A stretch of DNA of 64,000 bases from Leucoraja erinacea (lineage: Eukaryota). Of this stretch, positions 5,533 to 60,629 are shown one piece after another (position 1 is the stretch's first letter; each line of letters starts with the position of its first letter). The position numbers were made by a program, and so were the translations under genes. The DNA is taken from NCBI RefSeq assembly GCF_028641065.1, contig NC_073384.1:72168001-72232000 (forward strand). The letters are read 5' to 3'. The notes under the pieces are model-generated. The model was given only the letters and a program-made list of their open reading frames with translations. It was not told the DNA's origin and searched no databases.

Positions 5533-5665
5533 GAAACAATGCCATAGAAGGTAAAAGCATGGAGTTCCACCTGCTTAACTTCAAGCGTTAAGCCAAACAT
5601 TAAAAGTGGTAATAAACTCAACCATTTCCTTTGCCACTTGCTAGTCAGGTGTAGAAGGGTTACAG

Positions 5666-5833
5666 TGTTCAAGAAGGAACTGCAGATGTTGGAAGATTGA
5701 AGGTACACAAAAATGCTGGAGAAACTCAGCGGGTTCAGACTGATGGTCTGAAGAAGGGTTTTGGCCCGAAACGTTGCCTATTTCCTTCGCTCCATAGATG
5801 CTGCTGCACCCGCTGAGTTTCTCCAGCATTTTT
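5666..5833. mobile_element. Short inverted PLE derivative with a hammerhead motif
   Basis: 17-bp TSD gtgtagaagggttacag (5649-5665, 5834-5850); inverted tail followed by ggtCTGAAGAagggttttggcccGAAAcgttgcc. Confidence 0.85.
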
Positions 5834-6082
5834 GTGTAGAAGGGTTACAGACTGTTCTGGGGAAAAGGGCACTGCACAGGATGAACACACTGCACCCAAA
5901 CACAACTGTGACTCTGAATGATCTTGCTGCGAGGTTAGTAAGTAGGGATTAAATTTTTATAGTAATGAAAGGGAAACTAGAAAACATCTGAATGGAGCAG
6001 CAATGAGAGAATTCAAATAAATATGTTAAAATCAGCGTAAATTTGATAAAATAATCTTTGCAGAAGACATTAAATGAATGCA

Positions 6083-6267
6083 AGATAGACAAAAATGCTG
6101 GAGAAACTCAGCGGGTGCAGCAGCATCTATGGAGCGAAGGAAATAGGCAACGTTTCGTACCGAAACGTTGCCTATTTCCTTCGCTCCATAGCTGCTGCTG
6201 CACCCGCTGAGTTTCTCCAGCATTTTTGTCTACCTTCGATTTTCCAGTATCTGCAGTTCCTTCTTAA
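6083..6267. mobile_element. Fold-back (palindromic) PLE derivative
   Basis: 16-bp TSD acattaaatgaatgca (6067-6082, 6268-6283); ~72-bp arms around a 3-nt loop at 6158-6160. Confidence 0.88.
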
Positions 6268-7169
6268 ACATTAAATGAATGCATGTTGGTACGTGCCACA
6301 TAAAACTGCCAACAAATTGCCATGCGGGATGCAACGTATTGACAAAAACATGGTTCAGACAAGCACAGGTTGTTAATATACCTGGTTAGGAAGCATCAAA
6401 GAATAATGGAGAAGTATAAAGAGGAGATTCATTGCATTGATTAGCGATGATATTACACAATTAAATAAAATGGATATCTGAGATGGGTTTAGGTTGGAAT
6501 GGGTTATTCAGGAAGAGCAGAGGAATGGAACTGGGCCAAGAGATTGGTGTTGAGATATAACTGTCCAATCTAATTTGTTAGCAAATTTCTACAAGGGACA
6601 AGTAAGGAAAGATCTACTTGTCATTCTCCCTGTGAACACTAATGATGTGAGTAGGAGTAGGATGAGGGTTTTGCAGAACAGCTTGAGGCAAAAGTGAAAA
6701 ACAGAACCACAAGATACTGATAATCTCTGAATATCAAAGTAGTTTTCAAACTGTCAGAGGATAAATGGTTTTTAAAACTGCTTAAAGATTGGCTCATCAA
6801 ATGGTATGTACAAGAGCTATATGTGACAACATATCCATGAAAAAATATATTTTAGAATTAGTTATTGGTAAAGAGAATTGTTGTATTGATACGGGCTTCA
6901 AATGAGACCATCCTCATCATTTATATAACAGGACAGGGGAGAAGAGAAGGCTTCTATTGAAAAGAAGTTTAATAAAAAACATTAAATGAGGCAGCAGTTG
7001 CAAATGATGGCAGAGAATAGGGTAGAAGATATAAACTAAATTGTGCGATAGAAAGTAAAGCCAAGATCATTCAAAGTTGTAAAAAGTCCAAATTTAAAGC
7101 TCTTTATCTGAGCATGGGCTAAGTTATGCCTCTGGTCCTCAGATGTTTCTTTAGGTAGAACTTAGAAAT

Positions 7170-8255
7170 AGAGAACATAGAACAAATCAGCACAGGTAAA
7201 ATGTTGTGCCGAACATGATTCCAAGCTAATCTGATCTCATCTACCTGCAGATGGTCCATATCCGTCTATTCCATGTCCATGTGACTATCTAAAAGCCTCT
7301 TAAACAGTACTATCATATCTGCCTCCACCATCACCCATGGCAATGCATTCCAGGTCCCCACTACTCACTGTATTAAACATTTTCCCCCCTCTCACCTAAT
7401 ACCTGTGCCTTCTAGTGTTGGACATGTTCATGCTGTCTACCGTATCTATGCCTCTCATCATTTGGTATACTGAAATCAAGTCACCCTTCAACCTCGGATG
7501 GTTCACAGAAAACAATCAAAGTCTATCCAACTTATTATTGTAGTGGAAACCCTGTATTCAGGCAGCATTCTGGTAAACCTCCTCTGCACCCTCTCCAAAG
7601 CTTCCATATCTTTCCTGTAATGAGGTGACCAGAACAGCACACAATACTCCAAATGTGGCCTAACCAAAGTCCTATGGATCTACATCATGACTTCCTGACT
7701 CTTATATTCAATGCCCCTAGCAATGAAAACAAGCATGTCATACCTCTTCTTTACCACTATCTACGTGCTACTGCCTTCAGTAAGCTATGAAGATCCCCGG
7801 CACATCACATACCGTTAAGGGTCTTGCCATTAACTGTATACTTTCCCCTGACATTCAACCTCCCAACGTGCAACACCTCACGCTTGCTCGAGTTAAACTC
7901 CATCTGCCATCTCTCCACCCATCTCTGCAGCCGATCTATATCCCACTGTATCTTCTGACAGCCTTCCACACTGTCTGCAACTCCTCCAATGTTGGTGTTG
8001 TCAGAAAACTTAAGGGCCTGGCCCACTTGGGCGTCATTTGCGCGTCATGAGATGGCGTGTCACTACGCACGTGTCACGATGCGCGCGTTGTGCGTCGTGA
8101 CGCGCAAATTACGCCCAAGTGGGACAGGCCCTTCACTCATCAATGCATCTACATTTACATCCGGGACAATTAGACATATCACAAACAGCAGGTCCAAGCA
8201 CAGATCCCTGTGGAACTCCACTGATCAAAGACCACCAGCCAGAACACCTACCTTA
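7170..8255 (-). mobile_element. CR1 (HER1-like) LINE 3' part
   Basis: KFSDNTNIGGVADSVEGCQKIQWDIDRLQRWVERWQMEFN; (ttctatg)n-type tail; interrupted by a MITE at 8013. Confidence 0.85.
8013..8132. mobile_element. 120-bp PIF/Harbinger-type MITE
   Basis: TIR agggcctg(g/t)cccacttgggcgt..., flanks tta/tca; inserted into CR1. Confidence 0.8.
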
Positions 8256-8425
8256 CACCACAATGTATGTCTACAATTATATATGGTGGTGTTTATTAGG
8301 CCTCATCTGGAATACCACATACAATTTTGATTTTCTTATTTAAGGGCTGATATGCTACCATTGGGGCCAATTGAGGAATGAATTCATTCCAAATATGCAA
8401 GGACTTTCCTATCAAGAAAGGCTAA

Positions 8426-8639
8426 AGTGCCTGTCCCACTTTCACAACCTTTCTTACTCGTGGACATTTTTCATCATGTTGAAAAATCGCCCCGACCTAC
8501 TTGATGCCACGAGTACCTACGACTAGCATCACAACCTACCTACGACCACCTATGACCTTGTGATGTCCATGCTGTAAGTATGAGAAATGGGCAAACTCAG
8601 CAGAGTCGTGAATTAGGTCATGAAAGTGGGACAGGCCCT
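8426..8639. mobile_element. PIF/Harbinger-type MITE inside a decayed plus-strand CR1
   Basis: TIR ag(t/g)gcctgtcccactttca; 3-bp TSD TAA on both sides. Confidence 0.82.
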
Positions 8640-9334
8640 TAAATAAAAGTTTGATCTGTACTCTTTGGAGTTTAGAAGAACAAGGGTGATCTTACTCAAA
8701 CATAAACAGTCCTAAAAAGACTTGACATTAAGATGTATTAAGATGTTTCCGCCAATGGGTAAGTCTCAAATAGAACATAAATAGCAGACACGAGATGGTC
8801 AGTTAAAGGAATGTATTTATGTAGAAGTTAATAATTTCTGAGAAGTTCTGAGGTTGTAAAGTGCCAAGAAAGAAGGCAAACTGTAAGTTGAAAGGAAATC
8901 TTCAAGTATAGTTTTTATAAACACTAGCGCTCTTCTTCTGCTATGAGGTCATGTTAACAAAGTTCTAGGCCATGACAGAAATACAAAACGGCTCTGATGT
9001 GCTGTTTTAAAGTGTTTAACATGAAAGAAAAATAGAAAAAAAAGAGAAATTTGGTCAATCAAACTGTCACTTGTGGATTTCTTGGATCATAAAATAAGGA
9101 AACTAGGACAAACTTTGGGAAATGAGGACAGAATGCATTGACTGTATAGAGTCAGAGAGAGGTGTCTGAGTGTGTGTAGTTAGGACCTCAACTGTACAGA
9201 ATAGGAAGGCCATAATGGAGTAGAACTATATTGTATATTTTAGGTCACTTCATTATATTAATTGTATGTTATAGCAATTTTATTCGTTCTAGTTTGTTCA
9301 GATTTTAAGTAAGTGTTTAAAAAAAAAACAATGT

Positions 9335-9612
9335 TTGATGCAGCAGGAGAGTTGCTGCTGCCTTGGAGACCCAGGTTCAATCTTGATCACAGGTGCTGTC
9401 TGCATGGAGTTTGTACGTTCCTCCTGTAACTTTGTGGTTTTCTCCAGGTGCTCTGGTTTCCTCACGCATTCCAAAGACGTGCAGGTATGTAGGTTAATTA
9501 ACTTCTGCAAATTGCCCCGTGTGTGTAGGATGTGGTTCGGTAGATTGTCAGTCATCGTGGACTCGGTGGGCTGAAGGGCCTGTTTCCACACTGCCTAGCT
9601 AAAAACTAAAAC
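9335..9612 (+). mobile_element. HE1-like V-SINE
   Basis: B-box-like ggttcaatc, V-domain, tail gggctgaagggcctgtttcc...ctaaa. Confidence 0.82.
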
Positions 9613-10225
9613 TACTGAGTCTGTGTTGGACCACGATAGTTGAGGGAGTCCGTGGGATGGTGGTGAAGACTCTATACTCGCCACTTACATAAAACATAGT
9701 GGAGAAGTCACAAACGAGAAGGAAAGAATCAGAGATAAACTAGATGAAAGAAAAAGCCGGGTAAACATTGGCAACCAAGGTGAACTAACTTTCAAGTTCT
9801 GTGCGAGAGCAGGAGATAACAGCCAGAATGTACCAGACAAAAAGATGAGGGAGTAGGCCGGGTTATCACCAAAACTGAATGTTCCACATTTCTCATAGAG
9901 AAACATAACACAACTGCATACATGTTCCTATAATAAAGTCTTTGATTTGATTGTGGAGTTTAACAAATGGATCTCATTTCTATTTCAGGACTTGCTGGAA
10001 CATCAGGTAAAGCATTATACATAAGGGTTATAAATTATTTGTTTCATCTAAAATTAAAAGCTCACTGAGGGATAGAGAAAATCTGTGAGAATTTCCTTGG
10101 GATGTTGCTGTGATCAGAAGAGTGCAATCCGCAGCAGCATTGCAAATACCCGAGTCCATGGTTGAGATTGGTTGGCCACTTCACCACTGTCAGTCTATTC
10201 CCTATAAAACCCAGACAGTCTAGCC

Positions 10226-10912
10226 CAGGGGTGGGGAACCTGCACCCGTCTAAGCCATTTAGTGCGGCCTTTTGAATTAATCCAAATTTTGTAGAACAAA
10301 GGTAGACAAAAGTGCTGGAGAAACTCAGTGGGTGCAGCAGCATCTATGGAGCGAAGGAAATTGACAACATAGAAACATAGAAATTAGGTGCAGGAGTAGG
10401 CCATTCGGCCCTTCGAGCCTGCACCGCCATTCAATATGATCATGGCTGATCATCCAACTCAGTATCCCGTACCTGCCTTCTCTCCATACCCCCTGATCCC
10501 CTTAGCCACAAGGGCCACATCTAACTCCCTCTTAAATATAGCCAATGAACTGGCCTCAACTACCCTCTGTGGCAGAGAGTTCCAGAGACAACGTTTTCGG
10601 GCCGAAAAACCCTTCTTCAGACTTGTCGAACAAATCTTTTTATTATTATTAATATGTTTTTGTTCATCTTTTATTATTTTATTTTAATCTTAAAATGAAC
10701 GTATTTAAAATACCAAAGAGCAAAAGAAGAGTCAACAAAATAATCCTCCCCGACTAACGGCCACGATTAAAACATTAGTAAGTCATGAGGGCTATTTTAA
10801 CAAAATAATGTACATTTTGAAGTGTATCTAATTGAAGTTTCTTGGATGCGGCCTTGTTAGATTACAGCTAACTTAATGCGGCCTTCCACCATGGAAAGGT
10901 TCCCCACCCCTG
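10226..10912. mobile_element. hAT (Charlie-like) non-autonomous transposon with nested PLE and CR1 fragments
   Basis: TIR caggggtggggaacct / aggttccccacccctg; perfect 8-bp TSD gtctagcc (10218-10225, 10913-10920). Confidence 0.9.
10368..10586 (-). mobile_element. Young CR1 3' end with (ctatgttt)n tail, inserted into a PLE hammerhead fragment (10301-10622)
   Basis: Nearly identical to 50980-51200; the PLE sequence resumes as gacaacgttttcgggccgaaaaacccttcttcagac. Confidence 0.85.
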
Positions 10913-11599
10913 GTCTAGCCAGAGGGGAGAGGAAGAAGAAAGGGAGATTAAAGTGCAGCACCTCCCTGCTAGTTGTGTTCCCTTGTTGCGGGTTTGAGGA
11001 AGACTGAGCCACTGGGACAAACCTGAGACCACCAGAACCACTGTGTGGTTAAGACTGGCCTGATGGTATAGAAGCCCTAGACAGCCACCACCTCTACCAC
11101 CTGTGATGGCAGAGCTGAATAATTCCCGTGATGCCAGAAAATTGAATAAATCACATGAGTTCACCCGACTGCGAGTGTCGGTGTGGTCAATGCCCACCCA
11201 GCTTTGTACCTGACGCCACGGAATATTATAATAAATATCAAATAAAGTCTGTAATATTTTACAAATGAAATAGATATAATGTTGCATTGGCAACACATGC
11301 AGCTTTTTTTTGATTTTATTAAAATTCTCTTCACGACTCCTACCTACCTCTAAAACCCACGTTTTTGTTTTTTTGTTTGGGTATTAAATGAATGATGCTC
11401 TTCTCAGAGCCAGATACTCACAATAAAGAGCAGCAGAAAGGCATTAAAGTTTGAATGAATACATTTTAGAAATAACATCAACTGTGAATAGTAATACTTT
11501 GCAGAGAAAGGACATCCTAAAACACACACGGTTAAATATCGCAGCATGAGAGGATGAGATGGTAATCGATGGAACGTTTGCTTTTATACCGACAGACTA

Positions 11600-11893
11600 T
11601 CTCCCCCCCCCACAATATTTGCACATCTCACAATCCTTTCCACTCGTCACTTTAATTTCATGTTTCATGTACCTTGTGTTTTATTATTTTTTATGTACCT
11701 TGTGTTTTATTATTTTTTTTAATTCAAATCGTTTGCTATGTCGCTCTTCAAGGGAGATGCTAAATGCATTTCGTTGTCTCTGTACTGTACACTGACAATG
11801 ACAATTAAATTGAATCTGAATCTGAATCTGAATGACTGTTGGCGGACCAATTTCCCTCCTGGGATGAATAAAGTTGTACCGTATCATATCATA
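11600..11893 (+). mobile_element. Two nested Rex1-type 3' tails
   Basis: 11705-11832 matches the tail at 49695-49827, ending (tctgaa)n; a second tail ends aataaagtt(gtatc)n-like. Confidence 0.6.
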
Positions 11894-11932
11894 ACATTCT
11901 ACAATACTAGAATAGAGCAAAGGTTAGTTTAC

Positions 11933-12173
11933 CTGGTACACCTGCTGGGGACAAGGTCCCAGACCTGGACTGGTTACTTCCAACAGGGGAGCCAACGGGA
12001 GAGGGAGAGGGCCCCCGTATGCCAGAGAGGTGAGGGGAGGCATGGGGCGAGAAGGGAGACTGAGCAGGATTACTCTGTTCTCCTTGGCCACTGGAGGATC
12101 CTGAAGCACTCACGCCAGAACTTAAAGTTCCTTCCGTCCCCGTTGGTAGGTCATCAATGGATCCAGACAAATC
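11933..12173 (-). CDS. ARID1B: Internal coding exon of ARID1B (SWI/SNF-BAF subunit), equivalent to human exon 5
   Basis: Minus strand: polypyrimidine acceptor ctttattttttcttttttgctag|GAT and donor GTACCAG|gtaaac; 241 bp (80 codons + 1). Translation [80 protein letters not shown](G) matches the recalled ARID1 segment; [20 protein letters not shown] and [10 protein letters not shown] are ARID1B-type rather than ARID1A-type. Confidence 0.93.
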
Positions 12174-12195
12174 CTAGCAAAAAAGAAAAAATAAA

Positions 12196-12325
12196 GTCAC
12201 AAGTCAAGTCAAGTCAAGTCAAGTTTATTTGTCACATACACATACGAGATGTGCAGTGAAATGAAAGTGGCAATGCTCGCAAAACAACAAAACACCAAAC
12301 AAATTATAAACACAATCATAACACC
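12196..12325 (-). mobile_element. LINE 3' tail (Rex1-like) ending in (acttg)n
   Basis: Minus strand ...catttcactgcacatctcgtatgtgtatgtgacaaataaa(cttga)n. Confidence 0.6.
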
Positions 12326-12469
12326 AAATTGGTGTTTATCCATATTATAATAAAACCATGCTTCAATTATCCAATAATAGGTCCTATAGAAACAACCTTT
12401 TAAGATTTTTCATTGAATTACTGATCACTGTATTGACTGTTTCTCAGTAACAATAATGATTAGAATACT

Positions 12470-12656
12470 AGGTAGACAAAAATGCTGGAGAAACTCAGTG
12501 GGTGAGGCAGCATCTATGGAGCAAAGGAAATAGGCAACGTTTCGTGCCGAAACGTTGCCTATTTCCTTCGCTCCATAGATGCTGCCTCACCCGCTGAGTT
12601 TCTCCAGCATTTTTGTATCCCTGTGATTTTCCAGCATCTGCAGTTCCTTCTTAAAT
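12470..12656. mobile_element. Fold-back PLE derivative
   Basis: Arms meet at gtttcg-tgc-cgaaac (12539-12553); TSD atgatta(g/t)aatact. Confidence 0.85.
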
Positions 12657-12749
12657 ATGATTATAATACTTGTTGCTGGCTTCTCCAAGAATTACTTTCC
12701 AGGTCAAACAATAGCGATGCTGGGGTGAAACCATATTGAACACGCTGAC

Positions 12750-16639: not shown

Positions 16640-18329
16640 TCTATAACACAATAGTTATGTTCCTAAGAAACCGTGTGTTGTAAAAAAATCATGTTATAAA
16701 TATGTCAATGGGGAAAGGGGGTTCGGGCTCAGTGTTTCAGAATCGCAATTACAAGATTATTTTTATGCATGATTAAAAAAAAACGTTTTTTTCAATAGCA
16801 ATAAGTTTATTTATGTTCCTGCAATCTAAAAATACTAAAAAAGGCTGCATGTTACATTATTTAATAAGGTATTGTTGCACAAATGTCAATAGACAAGTTG
16901 TGTACATGGATTTCAGTAAGGCATTCGATAAGGTGCCACATGGTAGGCTGCTCTGGAAGGTTAGATCGCATGGGATCCAAGGAGAGATAGCTGAATGGAC
17001 AGCACATTGGCTTCATGGAAGGAAGCAGAGGGTGATGGTGGAAGGTTGCTTCTCGTACTGGAGGTCTGTGACTAGTGGTGTGCCTCAGGATTCGGTGCTG
17101 GGCCCGTTACTGTTTGTCATCTACATCAATGATTTGGATGAGAACATACAGGGCAAGATTAGCAAGTTTGCTGATGATACAAAAGTGAGTAGTTTTGCAG
17201 GTAATGAAGATGGTTATGAAAGATTGCAGCAGGATCTGGATCGATTGGCCAGGTGGGCTGAGGAATGGTTGATGGAGTTTAATACAGAGAAGTGTGAGGT
17301 GTTGCATTTTGGGAAGTCTAACATGGGTAGGAATGGTAGGCCTCTGGGGAGTGTTGTAGATCAGAGGGATCTAGGAGTACAAGTGTTCTTTGAAGGTCGA
17401 GTCGCAGGTAGATAAGGTGGTGATAACGGCTTTTGGCACACTGGCCTTCATCAGTCAGAGTATTGAGTTTAGAAGTTGGGAGGCCATGTTGCAGTTGTAT
17501 AAGAAGTTGGTGAGGCCGCATTTAGAGTATTGTGTTTAGTTCTGGGCATCATATTATAGGAAAGACACTGTCAAGCTTGAAAGGGTTCAGAAAAGATTTA
17601 TGAAGATGTTGCCAGGACTAGAGGGTGTGAGCGACAGGGAGAGGTTGAGTAGGCTGGGTCTCTATTCCTTGGAGCGCAGGAGGAGGAGGGGCAATCTTAT
17701 AATCAAAATCATGAGAAGAATAGATCGGGTAGATGAATAGAATCTTTTACCCAGAGTAGGGGAATCAAGGACCAGAGGTGAAGGGGGAAATATTTAATAG
17801 GAATCTGAGGGGTAACTTTTTCACACAAATGGTGGTGGGTGTATGGAACAAGCTGCTAAAGGAGGTAGTTGAGTCTGGGACTATCCCATCGTTTAAGAAA
17901 CAGTTAGACAGGTACATGGATAGGACAGGTTTAAAGGGATATGGGCCAAGTGCAGGCAAGTGGGACTAGTGTAGCTGGGACATTGTTGGTCAGTGTGGGC
18001 AGGTTGGGCCGAAGGGCCTGTTTATGACATGACTGCTTGTCAATTTCAATGACAAATCTGCAGTTAAAGTTGCAGCTGTGTTCTTAAGATGTCTGATTAC
18101 TGCAGGGAGGTTACATGGAAACAGGTTTTTCTACCCATACTGTCTAAATACAAGAGCTTTTTTTTGTGCTTTTCGATCTCAAAGTAACTCTAATTGGTTC
18201 TCTAGTTTCTGATCAAAATCGCACTGTAAACAAACCGGCCTGGAACAAATCGAATGCAAATAATTCATCACTCATATTATAACCAATTCATGTTACGGAA
18301 ACACATGCTATTACAGAATTACCTGTAGT
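16640..18329. mobile_element. Possible Tigger-like remnant split by the CR1 insertion
   Basis: Right end ...attacagaattacctg|TA; left part ctctataacacaatagttatgttcc resembles Tigger subtermini. Confidence 0.3.
16885..18025 (+). mobile_element. CR1 (HER1-like) LINE, 5'-truncated, RT domain to 3'UTR
   Basis: VVYMDFSKAFDKVPHGRL...[22 protein letters not shown]...KFADDTK; 3' end gggccgaagggcctgttt shared with the SINE tails. Confidence 0.93.
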
Positions 18330-25123: not shown

Positions 25124-25296
25124 AGGCACAAAATGCTGGAGTAACTCAGTGGAACAGGCAGCATCTCTGGAGAGAAAGAATGGATGACGTTTCGGGTCGA
25201 GACCCTTCTTCACATAACCGATTGCCGACGTCACCTATTCCTTCGCTCAATAGATGCTGCCTCACCCGCTGAGTTTCTCCAGCATTTTTGTCTACC
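25124..25296. mobile_element. Inverted PLE derivative made of two subfamily tails
   Basis: Minus-strand tail with truncated hammerhead, then plus-strand tail; flanking acctat repeats. Confidence 0.65.
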
Positions 25297-28266: not shown

Positions 28267-29030
28267 TGGGCCTGTCCCACTGAGGCGGCTTTTTAGGCGA
28301 CACTGGTGGTCGCTGGGGTGTCGTCTGTATGGTCGTGAGTAGCCTCCTCAGTCGCCCAAAGAGTCGTAGCATCTTTCTGGTTTTCAACATGTTGCAAATT
28401 TTTCGTCAACAGTGGCGACCTTGGGTTTGATGCCAAATGAGCTGTCGTTGGTTGTCGCCAGGATGTCCTAGGGCAGGGGTGGGCAACCTTGTTCTGCATA
28501 GGGGCCGGGACGCATGTCTGTGAGCGGATGGCGGGCCACATCTATCACGTGTACACATGGATCCCACCCCCATCCCACCCCGGATGGCAGGCATCAAATC
28601 ACGTGTTCACAGAAGGTAGACAAAAATGCTGGAGAAACTCAGCGGGTGAGGCAGCCTCATGCAATCCTTGCATGTTTCGCCCGCTGAGTTTCTCCAGCAT
28701 TTTTGTCTACCGTCGATTTTTCCAGCATCTGCAGTTATTTCTTAAACGTGTTCGCAGAAGGTGCGTGGCCGTGCCGGCAGCTTTGCGCAGGATACGGTAC
28801 AGCCAGAGCTTGGCCGCGTTCGGCGGGCCGGATGATTACGGGGGGTGGGGGGAAATCTGCCTGCGGGCCGGATGATTAGGGGGGAAAAATCTGCCTGCGG
28901 GCCGGATGATTCCGGGGGCCGTAGGTTGCTGACCTGTCGTAGGGTGTCGCCAGGTGACGTAGGTTGTCGCTGGTGCTGACTTCGGTGAATTTCAAAGTTG
29001 TGTTCGCCGGCAGTCGACTAAAAAATCACA
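28267..29030. mobile_element. PIF/Harbinger-type MITE (right end lost) hosting a hAT element
   Basis: TAA|tgggcctgtcccact; interior matches 63196-63610. Confidence 0.72.
28474..28936. mobile_element. hAT (Charlie-like) MITE hosting a fold-back PLE (28618-28745)
   Basis: TIR caggggtgggcaacct / aggttgctgacctg; TSD tcctaggg/tcgtaggg; subterminal gcgggccggatgatt repeats; PLE TSD acgtgttc(a/g)cagaaggt. Confidence 0.8.
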
Positions 29031-30078: not shown

Positions 30079-30412
30079 ACAGAAAAGTAACATAGGAAAG
30101 AATACAGATCGTCCCCAGCTTATGAATGCCCGGCCTATGTACGGTCCAGACATACAAGCAAATGTTTAAACACCGGCCGGGTGGCTTTTTCGACTGCTGT
30201 GGGGCTGGAGGCGATAGTTCGTGACACAAGCTGGAATTCTGTCACATCAAACCCATGAACAATACATTGCAGTTAATGTGTTGATGTCCTTTTTGCAAAT
30301 CCAATTTAGAGACCTGCCGTCCACACCAGTAGCATTGTCCTTTTTAAAAAAACTGGAAATAGCATTTAAAACTCTGTCTACAGTAAAACATTTAAAACAA
30401 ATATTATTAACC

Positions 30413-30590
30413 TGATGATAGACACAAAAGCTGGAGCAACTCAGCAGATCAGACAGCATCTCTGAAGATAAGGAATAGATAACGTTTCGGGTCGAGACCC
30501 TATTCCTTTTCTCCAGATATGCTTGCTGTCTGACTCACAGCTGTTTGTGTCTATCTTCAGTTTAAACCAGCATCTGCAGTTCCTTCCTAC
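30413..30590. mobile_element. Fold-back PLE derivative (second subfamily)
   Basis: 10-bp TSD attattaacc (30403-30412, 30591-30600); inversion point at helix II gggtcgagaccc. Confidence 0.78.
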
Positions 30591-30826
30591 ATTATTAACC
30601 GGAGATAGGTTTGGACTAAATTTGCTAATATAAAAATGGCAAAACAAGATTTAATATGGTTTGCCAGACTGTCTATTCCTAAAGAACTACCAAACTCTGC
30701 AAGCATCTTCTGTTGTGTGGGAACTCTGGACAGCACAACCCTGTATTAATCTTAGGACTAAAAGGTTGATCTTAATGATCCTCATAAAAGGATGAATAGT
30801 GAGGCCACACAAGAATTTATAGGTTG

Positions 30827-33180: not shown

Positions 33181-33397
33181 ATAATGAGACAATGACCGAT
33201 GCCTTGTCTTGAAAGTACCAACTGATAAGATGCCTTTGAAATGTGACTGCTAATTGACAAGAGACCAGCTCAGACACATCCTGTGGTGATGTGTATTGAC
33301 TGTATCTCTGACCATGACTAACATCTTTGGTTATGTGACTAAGTGACAAACACACAGTATAAAATATCATGCAATTCTTTGTTCATTGAAGTGGCAC

Positions 33398-35478
33398 ACG
33401 TTTCGGGCCGAAACCCTTCTTCAGACTGATCAGGGGTGGGTGGGGACAAGAAAGGGAAAAGGAGGAGTAGCCGGAAGGCTGGAGGGTGGGAGGAGACAGC
33501 AGGGGAGCTGAGGAAGGGGAGGAGACAGCAAGGACTAACAGAATTGGGAGAAGTAGATGGCCACCATCTCCAGCACCATCACCAACTTCATCCACTCCAA
33601 TGCCCTGCCCGACCGAGCCTCCAACCTCATCGTTCCCCAGCCCCGCACAGCCCGATTTTACCTTCTCCCTAAAATCCACAAACCTGATTGTCCCGGGAGA
33701 CCCATTGTCTCCGCCTGTTCGTGCCCCACCGAACTCATTTCCAAATACCTTGACTCCATCCTATCAAAGTTGGTTAAATCCCTCCCTACCTATGTCCAAA
33801 ATGCACCTCAGACACTCTCCGTTTCGGGTCGAGACGCATTCAATTCTCTAGGCCCTCACCCCCTCATCTTCACCATGGATGTCCAGTCACTATACACCTC
33901 CATCCCCCACCAGGATGGCTTCAAAGCTCTCCGGTTCTTCCTCGACCAGAGGAGCAACCTATACCCAGCCACTGTCACCCTCCTCCGCCTAGCGGAGTTC
34001 ATCCTCACCCTCAACAACTTTATGTTTAACTCCTCCCACTTCCTCCAAATACAAGGCGTAGCTATGGGCACACGAATGGGCCCCAGCTTGCCTGCCTATT
34101 TGTAGGTTACGTCGAGCAAAAGTCAATACATACCAGGGCCCCATCCCCGACCTCTACCTCCGCTACATCGACGACTGCTTTGGTGCCACCTCCTGCACCC
34201 GCACACAACTGACTGACTTCATCCACTTCACCACTAATTTCCACCCGGCACTGAAATACACCTGGACCATTTCCGACACTTCCCTACCATTCCTTGACCT
34301 CACTATCTCCATTGCAGGTGATAGACTTCTAACCGACATACACTATAAACCCACTGACTCCCATGGCTATCTGGACTACACTTCTTCCCACCCTGCTTCC
34401 TGTAAGGACTCCATCCCCTACTCCCAATTCCTCCGTCTACGCCGCATCTGCTCCACGGATGAGGCGTTCCACACCAGGACATCTGAAATGTCCTCACTAT
34501 TCAGGGAACGGGGGTTCCCCTCCTCCACCATAAATGAGGCTCGCACCAGGGTCTCTTCCATACCCCGCAACACTGCTCTCTCTCCCCATCCCCGCACTCG
34601 CAACAAGGGCTGAGTCCCCCTAGTCCTCACCTTTCACCCCACCAGCCGTCACATACAAAAATAATCCTCCGTCAGTTTCGTAAACCTCCAACGTGGCCTG
34701 TCCCACTACTACCACATCTTCCCATCTCCCCCCATATCTGCCTTCCGCAAAGACCGCTCCCTCCATAACTCCCTTGTCAATTCTTCCCTTCCCTCTCGGT
34801 CCACCCCCTCCCCGGGCACTTTCCCTTGCGGCCGCAGGAGATGCAACACTTGTCCCTTTACCTCCCCCCTCAACTCCGTTCAGGGACCCAAGCAATCGTT
34901 CCAGGTGCGACAGAGGTTTACCTGCATCTCTTCCAACCTCATCTATTGCGTCCGCTGCTCTAGATGTCAGCAGATCTATATCGGTGAGACCAAGCGGAGG
35001 TTGGGCGATCGTTTCGCCGAACACCTCCGCTCGGTCCGAAATAACCTAGCTGACCTCCCGGTGGCTCAGCACTTCAACTCCCCCTCCCACTCCGCCTCCG
35101 ACCTCTCTGTCCTGGGTCTCCTCCATGGCCACAGCAAGCAGCACCGGAAATTGGAGGAACAGCACCTCATATTCCGTTTGGGGAGTCTGCACCCCGGGGG
35201 CATGAACATCGACTTCTCCCAATTCTGTTAGTCCTTGCTGTCTCCTCCCCTTCCTCAGCTCCCCTGCTGTCTCCTCCCACCCTCCAGCCTTCCGGCTACT
35301 CCTCCTTTTCCCTTTCTTGTCCCCACCCACCCCCCCACCCCTGATCAGTCTGAAGAAGGGTTTCGGCCCGAAACGTTGCCTATTTCCTTCACTCCATAGA
35401 TGCTGCTGCACCCGCTGAGTTTCTCCAGCTTTTCTGTGTAACCTTCGATTCTCCAGCATCTGCAGTTCCCTCTTAAAC
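33398..35478 (+). mobile_element. Neptune-type Penelope-like element, 5'-truncated, with an inverted partial pLTR; RT + GIY-YIG ORF disrupted
   Basis: RFYLLPKIHKPDCPGRPIVS, FTMDVQSLYTSI, QIQGVAMG, YIDD (34164-34175), linker CGRRRCNTC, NLIYCVRCSRCQQIYIGETKRRLGDRFAEH; frameshifts and a stop; 33398-33554 is the inverse of 35212-35376. Confidence 0.93.
35346..35380 (+). ncRNA. Minimal hammerhead motif in the PLE 3' repeat
   Basis: cagt-CTGAAGA-a-gggt(ttcg)gccc-GAAA-cg-TT|gcc. Confidence 0.7.
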
Positions 35479-36454
35479 ACTAACATCTTTGGAATGTGAC
35501 TAAGTGACAAACACATAGTATAAAACATCATGCAAGTCAAGTGTCTGTGTTGCTTACTTGACTGGTGCATCCCCGTCACTTGCCGGCAGATGATCAGTAA
35601 AGATTGAGTTGGTCTACCTAACGTTTTTGTGAGTTGTCTGTTTATTAAGTAGTGAACCGAAACAGCGCGACCCGCTGAGTTACTCCGGTAGTTTGTGTCT
35701 TTCCCTTAGTCAAAGGTTCCACCCAAATTGCCAAGACCTGCATACATAATTTCTCAAATAGTTTATATCCCAAAACATTATTTTCTTATAGAAATGAGAG
35801 CAACTTTCACCCAAATGAATCAATACTGTTTCCGATGTCTTCGTGCCTTGTTTGATCACTGACAGAAATGCAATTTTTAATTTACTCTGCTTCAAAGTTC
35901 TGGACATTACTCTGGATCAAAGGGACACAAAATGCTGGTGGCAGCATCGGTGAAGTTTCGGGTCGAGACCTTTCTTCAGAGTTTCCTCTGGATCACACTG
36001 GTGCATTTCATGGTATAATATATGTTAATCTCCAGCTCTCTATAATACCAAATTGATGAAAGTGTGGAAGTTCATGCAGTATATACAGATCTCATTGCAA
36101 AAATAAATCATAAAAGTTCTACTAATCTAGACAGGTGCTAAAGCACCAAAATCCTCAATATGTTATTTAATTGAAAATAGAAATCTTCAATGAGTCAGGG
36201 TGGGGAGAGGAACTGTATCATATTAAGATTTTCCTATTGATTAAAAAGTTATGCTTAAAAGTCAATTTAAAAAAAAATATTTAAATTATTCTTTTAAATT
36301 ATTGTACCAGCTGGAAACAGCTGGAAACATTGGAGGAACGTAGAACAGTATCAGCACTGGAACAGGTTATTTGGCCTACAATGCCTGTGCAAACATGATG
36401 CCAAATTAAATTAATATCCTTGGCACGGGATCGATACAGATATCGAAACCGATA

Positions 36455-37009: not shown

Positions 37010-38278
37010 CCCACATTGACTGTGCTAAACATGGTGCCAAGATCAACTCTGAGCTGCGTGCACATAATCCATATCCCTCTATTCCCTGCTTGTCCATGTA
37101 CCTATCCAAAAGTCTATTAGATGCCACTATTGTATCTACCTACACCATCACCAACTGGCACAATGTCTTTATGTTTATGAAAACATAAACACTGCATTCC
37201 TGGCGCCCAGCACCCTCTGTATAAAAAATATGCTCTGCACATCTCCTTTAAACTTTGCCCCTCTCACCTTAAAGCTATGTCCTCTAATAATTGATATTTC
37301 TATCCTGGGTAAAAAGTTCAGACTGTCTATCCTATCTCTGCCTTTCATGGGCTTATAAATCTGTCTATCAGATCTCCCCTCAATGCTTGTCGTTGCTGAG
37401 AAAAACAATCCAAGTTCGTCCAACCTCTCCTTATAGCTAATACCCCTGAATCCAGGCAGTATTCTGATAAATCTCATCTGCACCCTTTCCAAAGCCTCCA
37501 CGCCGTTCTGTATTGGCGCCAACAGAACTACACACAATACTCAAAATGTGGCCTGAGTGCGCATTGTCTTCCTGATTCTTAAGGGCCTGTCCCACTTGCA
37601 TGCGATTGCATGCGTTTGGCACGACCAATCGGAAGCGGAATTTGCGCTAAGTTCATGCTAAGTACGTGCTAAATACACGCTAAGTTTGCGCATGATGTAA
37701 TTTGCGTCATACTTACCAATCAGCTGGGCAGGAGGCGGGCCGACTGAATTTGGGCGTCGCACGGCATCGGGCGGTGACGTCATCGTGCAACGCCATGCGC
37801 TAGGCGTACGCCATCAAGGCGTTGCGTACGACGTCAAGACGCTGCGTACGCCATCAAGACACTGCGTAGGCCCTCAATGTGCCTGCGGGCCGACAGGCCG
37901 TTGGAGCGCAAAATATTTGGCCAATGCAGGATTTTCGGAGCCCCACGCGATGTCGGGACCAGCCCCGCACAACTCCATACGCCTCCGCTCTTCGAAGTGG
38001 GACCGGCCCCGCGCAGCCCATACGCCTCAAGCGACCATGTTTGGTCGCGCCAGACGCATGCAATCTCATGCAAGTGGGACAGGCCCTTTACACTCAATGC
38101 CCGAGCAATGAAGGCAAACATACCATATACCTTGGTTACCACTCTATCTACTTGTATTGCCACTTTCAGCGAGTTAAGGACATGGACCCCACGACCACCT
38201 CTGTACATCGATGCTGTTAAAAGAGTCTTGCTTTTAATTGTATACTTTCCCGTTACATTCGATTTCCCGGAGTGCAAC
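37010..38278 (-). mobile_element. CR1 LINE 3' part interrupted by a MITE
   Basis: ALERVQMRFIRILPGFRGISYKERLDELGLFF...RGHSFKVRG. Confidence 0.83.
37582..38087. mobile_element. PIF/Harbinger-type MITE, CpG-rich
   Basis: ~45-bp TIR agggcctgtcccacttgcatg(c/a)gattgcatgcgt...; perfect TSD TTA. Confidence 0.88.
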
Positions 38279-38279
38279 A

Positions 38280-38713
38280 CCGTACGGAGTGTGTATGTTC
38301 TCCCTGTGACTGCGTGGGCTTTCTCTGGATGCTCTGGTTTCCTCCCACTCTCCAGAGACGTACAGGTTTGTAATTGGCTTTGGTAAAGATTGCAAATTGT
38401 CCTTAGTGTGTAGGACAGTGTTAATGTATGGGGTGTTGCTGCAGATGCTGCAAAAGTCGAAGCTAGATAAAAATGCTGGAGAAACTCAGCAAGTGAGGCC
38501 GCATCTATACAATTAAACATTTTGTCTACTCCACTGTGAAATCTCCTCAAGGTATGCCTACTTTGAAGAAGTTCTCCTCCTCCCTCCGAATAGATGCTGC
38601 CTCACCCGCTGAGTTTCTCCAGCAATTTTGTCTACCTTTAATGTAGGAGGTGATCGCTGGTCGGCACAGACTCGGTGGGCCGAAGGGCCTGTTTCCACGC
38701 TGTATCTCTAAAC
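38280..38713 (+). mobile_element. V-SINE interrupted by a fold-back PLE derivative (~38437-38640)
   Basis: The SINE resumes at gtgatcgctggtcggcacagactcgg; inverted PLE tails enclose an ~80-bp unrelated spacer. Confidence 0.75.
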
Positions 38714-58752: not shown

Positions 58753-60000
58753 TAACCTCCTCTTGTGTCTAACACATGGTAAAGGGCCGTTAATATCAAA
58801 GAACAGTCTTTGCCGTCTTTAATCACACGTTCATGTTCTCTTACCACCCAAAAATCAGGCAGAGCAGAAACTAAGTGATCGGTGCCAAAGAGTGTGTGGT
58901 GAGATGGTTTCTTTTGCAGGTCAAGGCTGATGCCAATACACATTGCTGTTAAAAAGCATTGCTCCTTCATCTCACCGCCCACCCTAGACCTTGAAATCCT
59001 CTCCCACCGGACAATTCTGAGCCTAAATAAATGTTATTCAAAGAAGACTCTAAACCTCCAGCAGTTTCTTTGTGCTCCAGATTCCAGCATCTGCACTCAC
59101 TCTGAAAATGAATTTCTCACTTTGCACACTTATCTGTAAATTAATAAGAATGCACCAACTTACAATGACTTCAGACTGGATTGGCAGTTTGTACATTCAG
59201 GTTCTTTTGCATTTGCGAGAACAGAACATAGTCAATGATCGTAGCAGGAATGAGTACAGGGTCAATTATGCTGTTATTTCCCAGAAACAGACATAGAACA
59301 TTGACTTTTCAAATGCTGCCGAACTTTTTTTCTAACTTTCCTCACAACGTATGTTTGTGAATGATTTCTTGAGTTGTGGTTACCCTTAATTTTCCCACCT
59401 AAATTATCATTCATGACAAAAGCCTCAACTGTGAACATTTACGAGATTAGGAGCATGTACTAATCTGGAACAACGGACAATCACTATTGAGCAGCCAACT
59501 TTTCAGCAATTCTTAATGAAATCCCTAGATATTTTTCCAGCCTGATCTCTCTAGTATAGATACATGGCAACAATGCCCCATTACCAATTACTGGCCTGAA
59601 TTCCATTTGGACTACGAAAATAGACACAAAAAGCTTAAGTAACCGAGCGGGTCAGACTGCATCTCTGGAGAAAAGGAATAAGTGACGTTTCAGGTCGAGA
59701 CCCTTCAACAAATTGGATGTACAAATTCAGCGTTGGTCAGGTCAATTGAAAAACAGTAGAGAAGGAGCAGCAGCCTTAATAATTAAGAATACAGTCACTT
59801 CAATGGCAAGAGGCTAATAACAGGAGATAAATGGAGGCATCTTGGTAGGAATAATTAAAACAATTAAGATGATGAATCCCATGATGAAAGCAGTGAAATA
59901 GAAAAATGCTTAACAGCAGAAATTGCACAATACTATGGCATAGTTGGAATGATATGCTGATGGATTTTTAAAATCACATATAGGTTTGGATAAACAAGTA

Positions 60001-60268
60001 CAGTGCCCTCCATAATGTTTGGGTCAAAGACCAATCATTTATTTATTTGCCTCTGTACTCCACAATTTGAGATTTGAAATAGAAAAAAATCACATGTGGT
60101 TAAAGTGCACATTGTTAGATTTTATTAAAGGCCATTTTTAAACATTTTGATTTCACCATGTAGAAATTACAGCTGTGTTTTTATATTACAAAACTCAAAT
60201 TGTGAAGTACAGAGGCAAATAAATAAATAAATGAAGGGTCTTTGTCCCAAACATTATGGAGGGCACTG
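60001..60268. mobile_element. Tc1-derived MITE (two fused TIRs)
   Basis: TA|cagtgccctccataatgtttggg ... cccaaacattatggagggcactg|TA. Confidence 0.9.
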
Positions 60269-60629
60269 TATATTTCTGGAGTGCATGCTGCCCTTAACAA
60301 TATGTCAAAAAAAACAACTGGATAGGCCACTTTTAATTTACCATTCAACCAGACTGAGCTTACAGCTTAATAGTGTTTGAATATTTATATGTAGTCACTA
60401 GACTAAGTGGGACCCGTTGGGTCCCATGTTCACACGGCAGGGCTGGTCCCCCGACGCAATATTCCACCTCTCCACCAATTCCAATATTGGTGGCCAGTGG
60501 GGGGGCTATCTGGAGTGCTGGTATGGGTTCTTGGGGTGGCAGCTCAGTCCCTCAAGCCTGATCTGCTGGCAGCTCACTCACGGCTGGTGGGCTGGCAGTT
60601 GACTCATGACTATTCCTTGAAATTCCTTT

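Follow-up and report, generated by a model that had tools for sequence, protein, structure and literature searches.

Insertions of the endonuclease-containing (EN+) Penelope-like elements (PLEs) have been described as units in which an inverted, 5′-truncated copy lies beside the repeat end, with a one-sided tail of 30–40 bp and a target-site duplication (TSD), and palindromes occur at their inverted junctions, with a 15-bp overlap in Pen2a_Av (PMC8557442, PMC3846280). The origin of such inverted, one-tailed insertions was described as still undefined (PMC8557442), and the junction palindromes of the rotifer PLEs were read as products of self-priming (PMC3846280). In the case of Poseidon of Anolis, the PLE protein cuts and extends both target strands from two reverse transcriptase (RT) start sites, the tail being the stretch between them and ribozyme cleavage not being needed; that work is silent on how the two complementary DNAs (cDNAs) are joined (PMC11167929). 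Two primings on opposite target strands also characterize the twin (or dual) priming of L1, which leaves inverted pieces within one TSD, joined by microhomology or end joining (PMC2837659).

The DNA considered here is a 64,000-nucleotide stretch of the genome of the skate Leucoraja erinacea (assembly GCF_028641065.1, contig NC_073384.1, positions 72,168,001–72,232,000 of the forward strand; hereafter the window), through which about 30 pieces of a PLE repeat end are dispersed. Its analysis, extended to the whole genome, concerns short hairpin insertions whose arms meet at a palindrome contained in the hammerhead motif of the element. The architecture of these insertions is already known; what is new is a counted, palindrome-dependent junction hotspot, evidence for the joining of two cDNAs and a bias in the composition of the hairpin loop. 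Unlike the published EN+ PLE units, the skate unit consists of the repeat end alone, and the hotspot was counted genome-wide, a contrast between subfamilies linking it to a single palindrome. No prior report of a palindrome hotspot or of a loop bias was found in the literature, most subscription journals, supplements, Repbase and Dfam lying outside the search.

The palindrome in question, GTTTCGG-C-CCGAAAC, occupies positions 35360–35374 of the window, where the initial annotation had recognized an inverted repeat GTTTCG-gcc-CGAAAC; the repeat is present but longer than had been thought, its structure being 7+1+7. By exact pattern matching over the 2.19-Gb genome, a centred junction being defined as one whose arms turn at the 3-nt middle of GTTTCG-NNN-CGAAAC, 3,636 such junctions were counted in the GTTGCC context, where intact cores number 19,307, a ratio of 0.19 which, like the other ratios given here, is approximate, intact cores being counted as arms and not as insertions and the junction pattern holding one extra CpG. 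A reversed control pattern gave 0 matches genome-wide. In the GTCACC context, whose subfamily carries GTCTCG, 98 centred junctions were found genome-wide for 15,758 intact cores (0.006), and the first 50 listed of these 98 include 26 with a GCC loop, that is, the palindromic variant, and 11 with ACC. The 30-fold lower ratio in the GTCTCG subfamily indicates that the palindrome causes the hotspot. The PLE origin of the junctions, their peak at the inverted repeat within the hammerhead motif and their dependence on this repeat, all of which the initial annotation had proposed, are thereby borne out. The further proposal that the ribozyme doubles as a turnaround signal did not hold up: the palindrome is not conserved, being absent from the GTCTCG subfamily of similar size, and hence is no ribozyme “signal”; furthermore, the turn destroys the motif, CUGAAGA and half of stem II being gone from both arms of the centred hairpins.

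The minimal hammerhead motif (35350–35377, forward strand) is made up of CUGAAGA at 35350–35356, an extra A, a stem II GGG/CCC, GAAAC and GUU, with the cut predicted after 35377. When read against the minimal hammerheads of metazoan PLEs, whose opposite-strand pairs have also been noted, it displays the same core boxes, namely CUGANGA, the extra base before stem II, G10.1–C11.1, GAAA, palindromic 15.2–16.2 and NUH (PMC4209133); helix I consists of 2–3 bp, and Rfam gave 0 matches to the motif at the gathering threshold. The 15-base palindrome spans loop II, the 3′ strand of stem II and the GAAAC box, so that its centre lies 10 nt upstream of the predicted cut. A turn at the cut site itself was considered and rejected, given this distance and the rarity of arms ending there: at most 11 of 271 cores are devoid of the downstream part and about three end at the site. 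As a separate observation, the inverted arm of the parent PLE copy of the window stops at about 35376, adjoining the predicted cut, and two further copies (L062 and L155) stop there too.

This parent copy (33393–35481, forward strand) is 5′-truncated and frameshifted and comprises the inverted arm (33393–33559), RT fragments from 33557 onward (a weak RVT_1 match, E 0.0011), a GIY-YIG fragment (34665–35231; weak, E 0.0013) and the repeat end with the hammerhead motif and a one-sided tail of ~35 nt (35444–35481, forward strand), which would lie between two putative RT start sites at about 35443 and 35479. The order RVT_1 then GIY-YIG is that of a canonical EN+ PLE, the frames being broken and both matches falling below the Pfam cut-offs; a Pfam search at 0.001 and a PDB sequence search gave no match. 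The translation contains a C-rich linker like that of Neptune, the likeness concerning this linker. An unusually long duplication surrounds this copy (33328–33397 / 35480–35537), amounting to ~55 bp by eye and to 32 bp with one mismatch by computation.

Two insertions of the window exemplify the centred class. In the first (6083–6269, forward strand; GCTGCAC/TGTCTA subfamily), the tail-less inverted arm (6083–6157) is followed by the loop TAC (6158–6160) and by the tailed arm reaching ~6269, within a TSD at 6067–6084 and 6268–6285; in the second (12470–12656, forward strand; GCCTCAC subfamily), the tail-less arm (12470–12544), the loop TGC (12545–12547) and the tailed arm reaching 12656 are flanked by a TSD at 12456–12469 and 12657–12670. 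Read on the other strand, the two loops are GTA and GCA, respectively. Both are 187-nt head-to-head pairs and they belong to different subfamilies, the subfamily bases being common to both arms of each, and their 75-nt arms differ at 2 and 4 positions, respectively. The initial claim that these two copies turn at the same point is confirmed by the alignment of the arms, the TSDs and the centres. Furthermore, the left junction of the 12470 insertion was found in three read runs from related organisms, and contigs from four read runs span the centre of centred hairpins, so that the class exists outside the assembly, loop alleles being neither counted nor assigned to loci in these reads.

Three further insertions, which had likewise been taken to turn inside the hammerhead hairpin, all join elsewhere. 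The one at 5666–5833 (reverse strand, tail at 5666; 17-bp TSD, 5649–5665 / 5834–5850) has its arms joined at the repeat's 5′ end (35343–35348) and a tailed arm lacking 35355–35410; that at 30416–30590 (forward strand; 13-bp TSD, 30403–30415 / 30591–30603) is a member of the GTCTCG subfamily with its junction at ~35357/35382; that at 28618–28745 (forward strand) is joined at 35399/35411 through a 20-nt linker. The last recurs, junction and flanks included, at three other loci (L046, L068 and L077; 84–86% identity over 300–460 bp) and is therefore a passenger of a multiplied host repeat and not an independent insertion. Thus, of the original picture of five independent insertions with TSDs of 10–17 bp, the flanking duplications stand, with lengths of 13–18 bp across the five copies, and the independence of one copy does not. 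The host repeat (28460–28960; also L046, L068, L077 and L164) bears the PLE insertion in several of its copies, and the linker contains a 7-bp hairpin, CATGCAA-TCC-TTGCATG; the terminal words of this repeat are, in our estimation, reminiscent of a miniature inverted-repeat transposable element (MITE) of the hAT type.

The centred hairpins were formed recurrently. Among the first 50 copies, 45 of which have two full arms, the divergence is 3.8% from arm to arm and 5.9% from copy to copy, and the TSDs are mainly of 11–17 bp. Six arm markers were compared over 108 copies (115 minus 7 local duplicates), and 15 of 504 arm–arm comparisons were discordant, as against 122 expected from random pairing and 20 from mutation alone. 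Overall, therefore, there were many templates, and one template sequence for each insertion; the pairing of two random RNAs in each insertion is rejected by these figures. The uniform length of the hairpins, 182–192 nt, and the occurrence of few loop types over thousands of copies might suggest that one or a few hairpin masters were amplified as a non-autonomous element; the copies, however, do not share diagnostic bases, at least six independent arm markers varying among them yet matching between the arms of each, and every loop type is found in several subfamilies and in both orientations, so that a master is exceedingly improbable, also as the source of the TCC loops. Recurrent formation, as the initial annotation had it, is in agreement with these varied markers and subfamilies and with the TSD that each copy has of its own; of the two outcomes that had been named as fatal to it, neither a uniform distribution of breakpoints nor a set of diagnostic mutations shared by the same-centre copies was found. 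The hairpins also differ from the tandem non-long-terminal-repeat retrozymes (10.64898/2026.07.22.740005), being inverted pairs without a whole hammerhead and not tandem units that each contain one.

How the arms come to be joined can be judged from two unbiased, tail-anchored samples, each consisting of the first 100 matches listed of the anchor (TGTGTA or TGTCTA), all on C1, the largest chromosome; arm ends were called against natural copies and offsets are numbered from window position 35414. The TGTGTA sample was reduced to 96 copies by the removal of one duplicate in L167, of the local duplicates L163a and L180b and of L187a, whose end call failed, and the TGTCTA sample to 94 by that of L027, L068, L077, L086, L087 and L107, which are duplicates or passengers. 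Copies extending >275 nt upstream (12 and 16, respectively) were left out of the inverted-arm search, L158a and L069 out of the inverted count and the miscalled L098 out of the comparison with short solo copies given below; in L090 the tail sits on the opposite arm. Inverted copies number 46 of 96 in the TGTGTA sample, 12 of them centred, and 31 of 94 in the TGTCTA sample, 2 of them centred. Given a null for the exact centre, 12 of 46 is highly significant (p 4e-7), whereas under a wide null comprising 15 of 70 positions it is not (p 0.27). The inverted truncated copies with their one-sided tail and TSD (median 14–14.5 bp) have the hallmarks of EN+ PLE insertions, and the presence in one arm of a ~35-nt tail that the other arm lacks makes the hairpins asymmetric.

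Three features of these samples bear on the mechanism. Firstly, the tail-less arm ends at +24 to +33 in 42 of 46 (TGTGTA) and 23 of 31 (TGTCTA) inverted copies, regardless of where the junction lies, a position that corresponds to the second RT start site of Frangieh 2024 (PMC11167929). Secondly, among the 34 non-centred inverted copies of the TGTGTA sample, 23 have a tail-less arm that extends further in the 5′ direction, 5 have a tailed arm that does so, and in 6 the two are equal. Thirdly, the tailed arm extends past the palindrome in 13 of these 34 copies, as against 22/29 of the short solo copies (p 0.005), a deficit that the centred copies fill and that is not seen in the palindrome-poor sample (19/28 vs 29/42). 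In addition, a second hotspot occurs at the 4+1+4 palindrome TCAG-T-CTGA (35345–35353), with 14 junctions in 2.0 Mb distributed over both subfamily groups. The 5′ ends of both arms accumulate there, at −60 to −70 (tailed arms 26/84 and 38/78, tail-less arms 23/46 and 14/31, in the TGTGTA and TGTCTA samples, respectively). The TCAGT at this point is, we presume, initiator-like.

The fixed tail-less end, the longer tail-less arms, the 4+1+4 hotspot and the deficit filled by the centred copies fit the joining of two cDNAs at self-complementary words, and we hold it moderately probable that the arms were joined at the 15-base hammerhead palindrome by the annealing of two cDNAs, one primed from each nicked target strand, the loop having changed after insertion. 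The initial annotation had instead proposed that the nascent cDNA snaps back on a hairpin of 6 bp and from there primes synthesis of the second strand, to which may be added a self-priming antisense template after Arkhipova 2013. Several points are in favour of this possibility: the hairpin is the predicted cDNA fold at the palindrome, a single stem mismatch abolishes the hotspot, the markers agree between the arms as expected from one template (15/504 discordant), a GGA loop, the commonest of the changed ones, would stabilize the hairpin on the cDNA strand, and self-priming at such palindromes has already been proposed for PLEs (PMC3846280). On the other hand, copying the first cDNA back leaves the fixed tail-less end unexplained, and the 23 of 34 non-centred copies mentioned above hold sequence of the tail-less arm that is missing from the tailed arm and could not have been made from the tailed strand. 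The 4+1+4 palindrome is too short to fold, the stability of the main hairpin is −4.2 kcal/mol with a z of −0.97, GCA loops sit on the strand that is not the cDNA, and a regional gradient of loop changes, described below, would not be expected at formation. Nor does the loop consistently display first-strand orientation: of 50 centred copies, 28 have the central base of the tail-less arm and 19 that of the tailed arm, 3 being undefined (28/47, p 0.24 vs 50:50), although later flipping is possible. Snap-back is thus improbable as the main route, and the skate data favour two-cDNA joining over the published self-priming reading (PMC3846280).

The templates with an ACC loop point in the same direction. 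Compared with GCC templates (7+1+7), those with ACC (6+3+6) have an equal hairpin energy (−3.5 kcal/mol) but an unequal self-dimer energy (−10.5 vs −18.6 kcal/mol for GCC), and true ACC templates seemingly fold back ~20-fold less. At first, the raw ratios (≤0.11 for ACC, with 89 junctions and ~825 intact ACC cores estimated from 42 of 100 listed of 1,965, vs ~0.1–0.2 for GCC) seemed uninformative, but most ACC junctions then proved to be in the GCC subfamily: of 19 inspected, just 2 fall in the subfamily in which 7 of 8 intact TTTCG-ACC cores are found. Equal hairpin and unequal dimer energies, together with the low yield of ACC templates in these small samples, point to the annealing of two cDNAs and are at variance with snap-back.

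A second alternative is that two cDNAs were first joined near the 5′ end of the RNA, giving a hairpin of ~220 nt, and that the centred form arose later via slippage or microhomology repair between the 15-mer copies around the hairpin tip. Such a collapse predicts the same sequence dependence and both orientations; among the 46 inverted copies, 12 with both arms past the palindrome stand beside the 12 centred ones, and the loop data described below suggest that the palindromes are processed after insertion. However, centred and longer copies show no difference in position in the sample from C1 0.8–41 Mb, and many longer copies persist, so that we regard later collapse as rather unlikely, albeit less so than snap-back.

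Several observations tell against the annealing of two cDNAs at insertion or are neutral to it. The concordance of the arm markers is equally predicted by snap-back; the asymmetry in the reach of the arms is absent from the TGTCTA sample, in which the tail-less arm is further 5′ in 12 copies, the tailed arm in 12 and neither in 5; the near 50:50 loop orientation could stem from later flipping of a hypermutable loop; the yield of the ACC templates was estimated from 8 + 19 copies; the centred share drops from 0.19 genome-wide to 11 per 100 intact on C1 0–13 Mb, which might be an effect of later collapse; finally, every head-to-head pair contains the 15-mer as a direct repeat, so that a post-insertion collapse would yield the same product, the timing of the join being a matter of inference.

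The pathway envisaged for two-cDNA joining would begin with the nicking of both target strands ~14 bp apart, a distance reflected in the observed TSD and a double cut known in vitro for the lizard PLE (PMC11167929). One cDNA would start at the tail end (~35479) and the other at an internal site (~35443), the ends being fixed in the data and their assignment to RT starts, and thus to two priming events of the twin or dual type, resting on the same work. Both cDNAs would be copied from the same template sequence, be it a single RNA or several from one locus, as the marker concordance shows, and would tend to run to about 35345–35350, the presumed 5′ end of the RNA, where 5′ ends were seen to accumulate. 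Being of the same sense, their 3′ ends could pair at self-complementary words only, the 15-mer pairing at 14 of 15 positions, whereupon flaps would be trimmed and the ends joined; the dependence on the palindrome is observed and annealing at the time of insertion is its probable cause. In such a scheme the ribozyme would have no role except that of containing, by chance, the palindrome of one subfamily. Finally, the first G of the loop would change after insertion in 47% of the copies, likely through germ-line extrusion of the long palindrome as a hairpin, more so in recombination-rich regions; here the counts and the gradient are data, and the timing and cause are suggested by them. The likeness to L1 is limited in that L1 twin priming yields non-overlapping pieces and an internal deletion (PMC2837659), whereas both skate cDNAs would cover the same ~75 nt and thereby generate a palindrome.

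The loops of the 3,636 centred hairpins are far from uniform: GCC occurs in 1,646, TCC in 1,378, TGC in 335, ACC in 89 and others in 188. TCC or TGC, which read GGA or GCA on the complementary strand, thus make up 1,713 loops (47%), and TCC alone 38%, vs 243 of 19,307 (1.3%) intact cores. Both favoured changes amount to a G to T change at the first loop base (GCC→TCC, GGC→TGC), while in the hairpin arms G>T/C>A changes were found at 24 of 4,416 G/C sites. The 50 TCC/TGC copies examined are present in every subfamily and in both orientations and have TSDs of their own. Their share varies with chromosome position: C1 has 26 of 90, the other chromosomes 52% (p 2e-5), and on C1 together with that part of C2 which was listed it is 31 of 76 within 10 Mb of a chromosome end vs 15 of 70 in the interior (p 0.013). 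As general background, chromosome ends and small chromosomes recombine more. These data make it likely that the loop changed after insertion.

Against this interpretation it must be said that the contrast between ends and interior weakens to p 0.05 once local duplicates are removed, that changed loops are no older than GCC loops (arm divergence 2.0–2.4% vs 2.4%), contrary to what late mutation at a constant rate would give, and that no such change was found among the 14 junctions of the second hotspot. An artefact of base calling or of assembly, brought about by strong hairpins, might also be invoked, hairpins being hard to sequence, the PacBio error being raised at repeats (PMC7897504) and the reads not having yielded counts of loop alleles; yet one specific change dominates, the state of the loop depends on chromosome position and it is retained by local duplicates, as in a duplicated block of C1, each copy of which contains a TCC and a GCC hairpin ~7 kb from each other, and an artefact is accordingly quite improbable. 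As to other sources, selective loss of GCC hairpins alone would require an implausible loss of ~98%, and loss or cutting that favours any wider spacer would predict more ACC than TCC, contrary to the observed 89 vs 1,378.

A candidate cause is biased conversion toward nuclease-resistant GNA loops: GNA were the sole triloops giving nuclease-resistant mini-hairpins in published work (PMC13037366) and the favoured skate loops are also GNA, their closing pair being the weaker, less stabilizing G:C (PMC3201870). Oxidation of an exposed G is another candidate, yet changes at the central G account for no more than some of the 188 other loops. Substitution rates are known to be raised in the spacers of inverted repeats and, as in the skate, the spacer is more mutable than the arms; the published genome-wide effect is, however, 1.2–1.3-fold (PMC7897504), whereas that of the skate loops is ~30-fold, concerns a single transversion and depends on position. 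Very tentatively, and with more doubt than assent, the thousands of near-identical PLE hairpins might be looked upon as a natural reporter array of a structure-driven force in the germ line of vertebrates, in which palindromes extrude where recombination is frequent, strands with GNA triloops resist nicking and biased conversion fixes GGA/GCA loops at ~30 times the background, the hairpins themselves recording two cDNAs from one template sealed at the palindrome. If the loop bias is real, the effect of hairpin DNA on germ-line substitution would be far larger and more specific than the published genome-wide estimates and would vary along chromosomes. As to the junctions, the thousands of events in the skate genome make up a natural experiment in which one base of a palindrome shifts the outcome 30-fold; predictions for the in vitro system already in use follow directly from it.

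Other arrangements of the repeat end were met with in the window and in the samples. Two more head-to-head pairs lie at 25127–25294, with arms seemingly of different subfamilies, and at 38439–38638, with an 81-nt unrelated spacer found again in L066, and at 10290–10623 a PLE arm is interrupted by ~220 bp of a different repeat, GACAAC being briefly duplicated. Locally duplicated segments containing hairpin insertions (L285/L287/L288, L291/L292, L297/L300, L298/L301, L305/L306, L312/L313 and L162/L163) are common near chromosome ends. The sequence shared downstream of the tail by L028, L086, L087, L107 and L109 was considered as the start of an open reading frame (ORF) and rejected; these loci belong to a composite repeat family of ~420 bp, 82–95% alike, with several pieces of the PLE repeat end in both orientations. 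An ORF fragment at 16777–17415 resembles, as we take it, the RT of a CR1-like long interspersed nuclear element. Finally, inverted-repeat elements with arms of 50–56 bp are found at 59999–60270 and 37573–38096 and are likely MITEs of DNA transposons.

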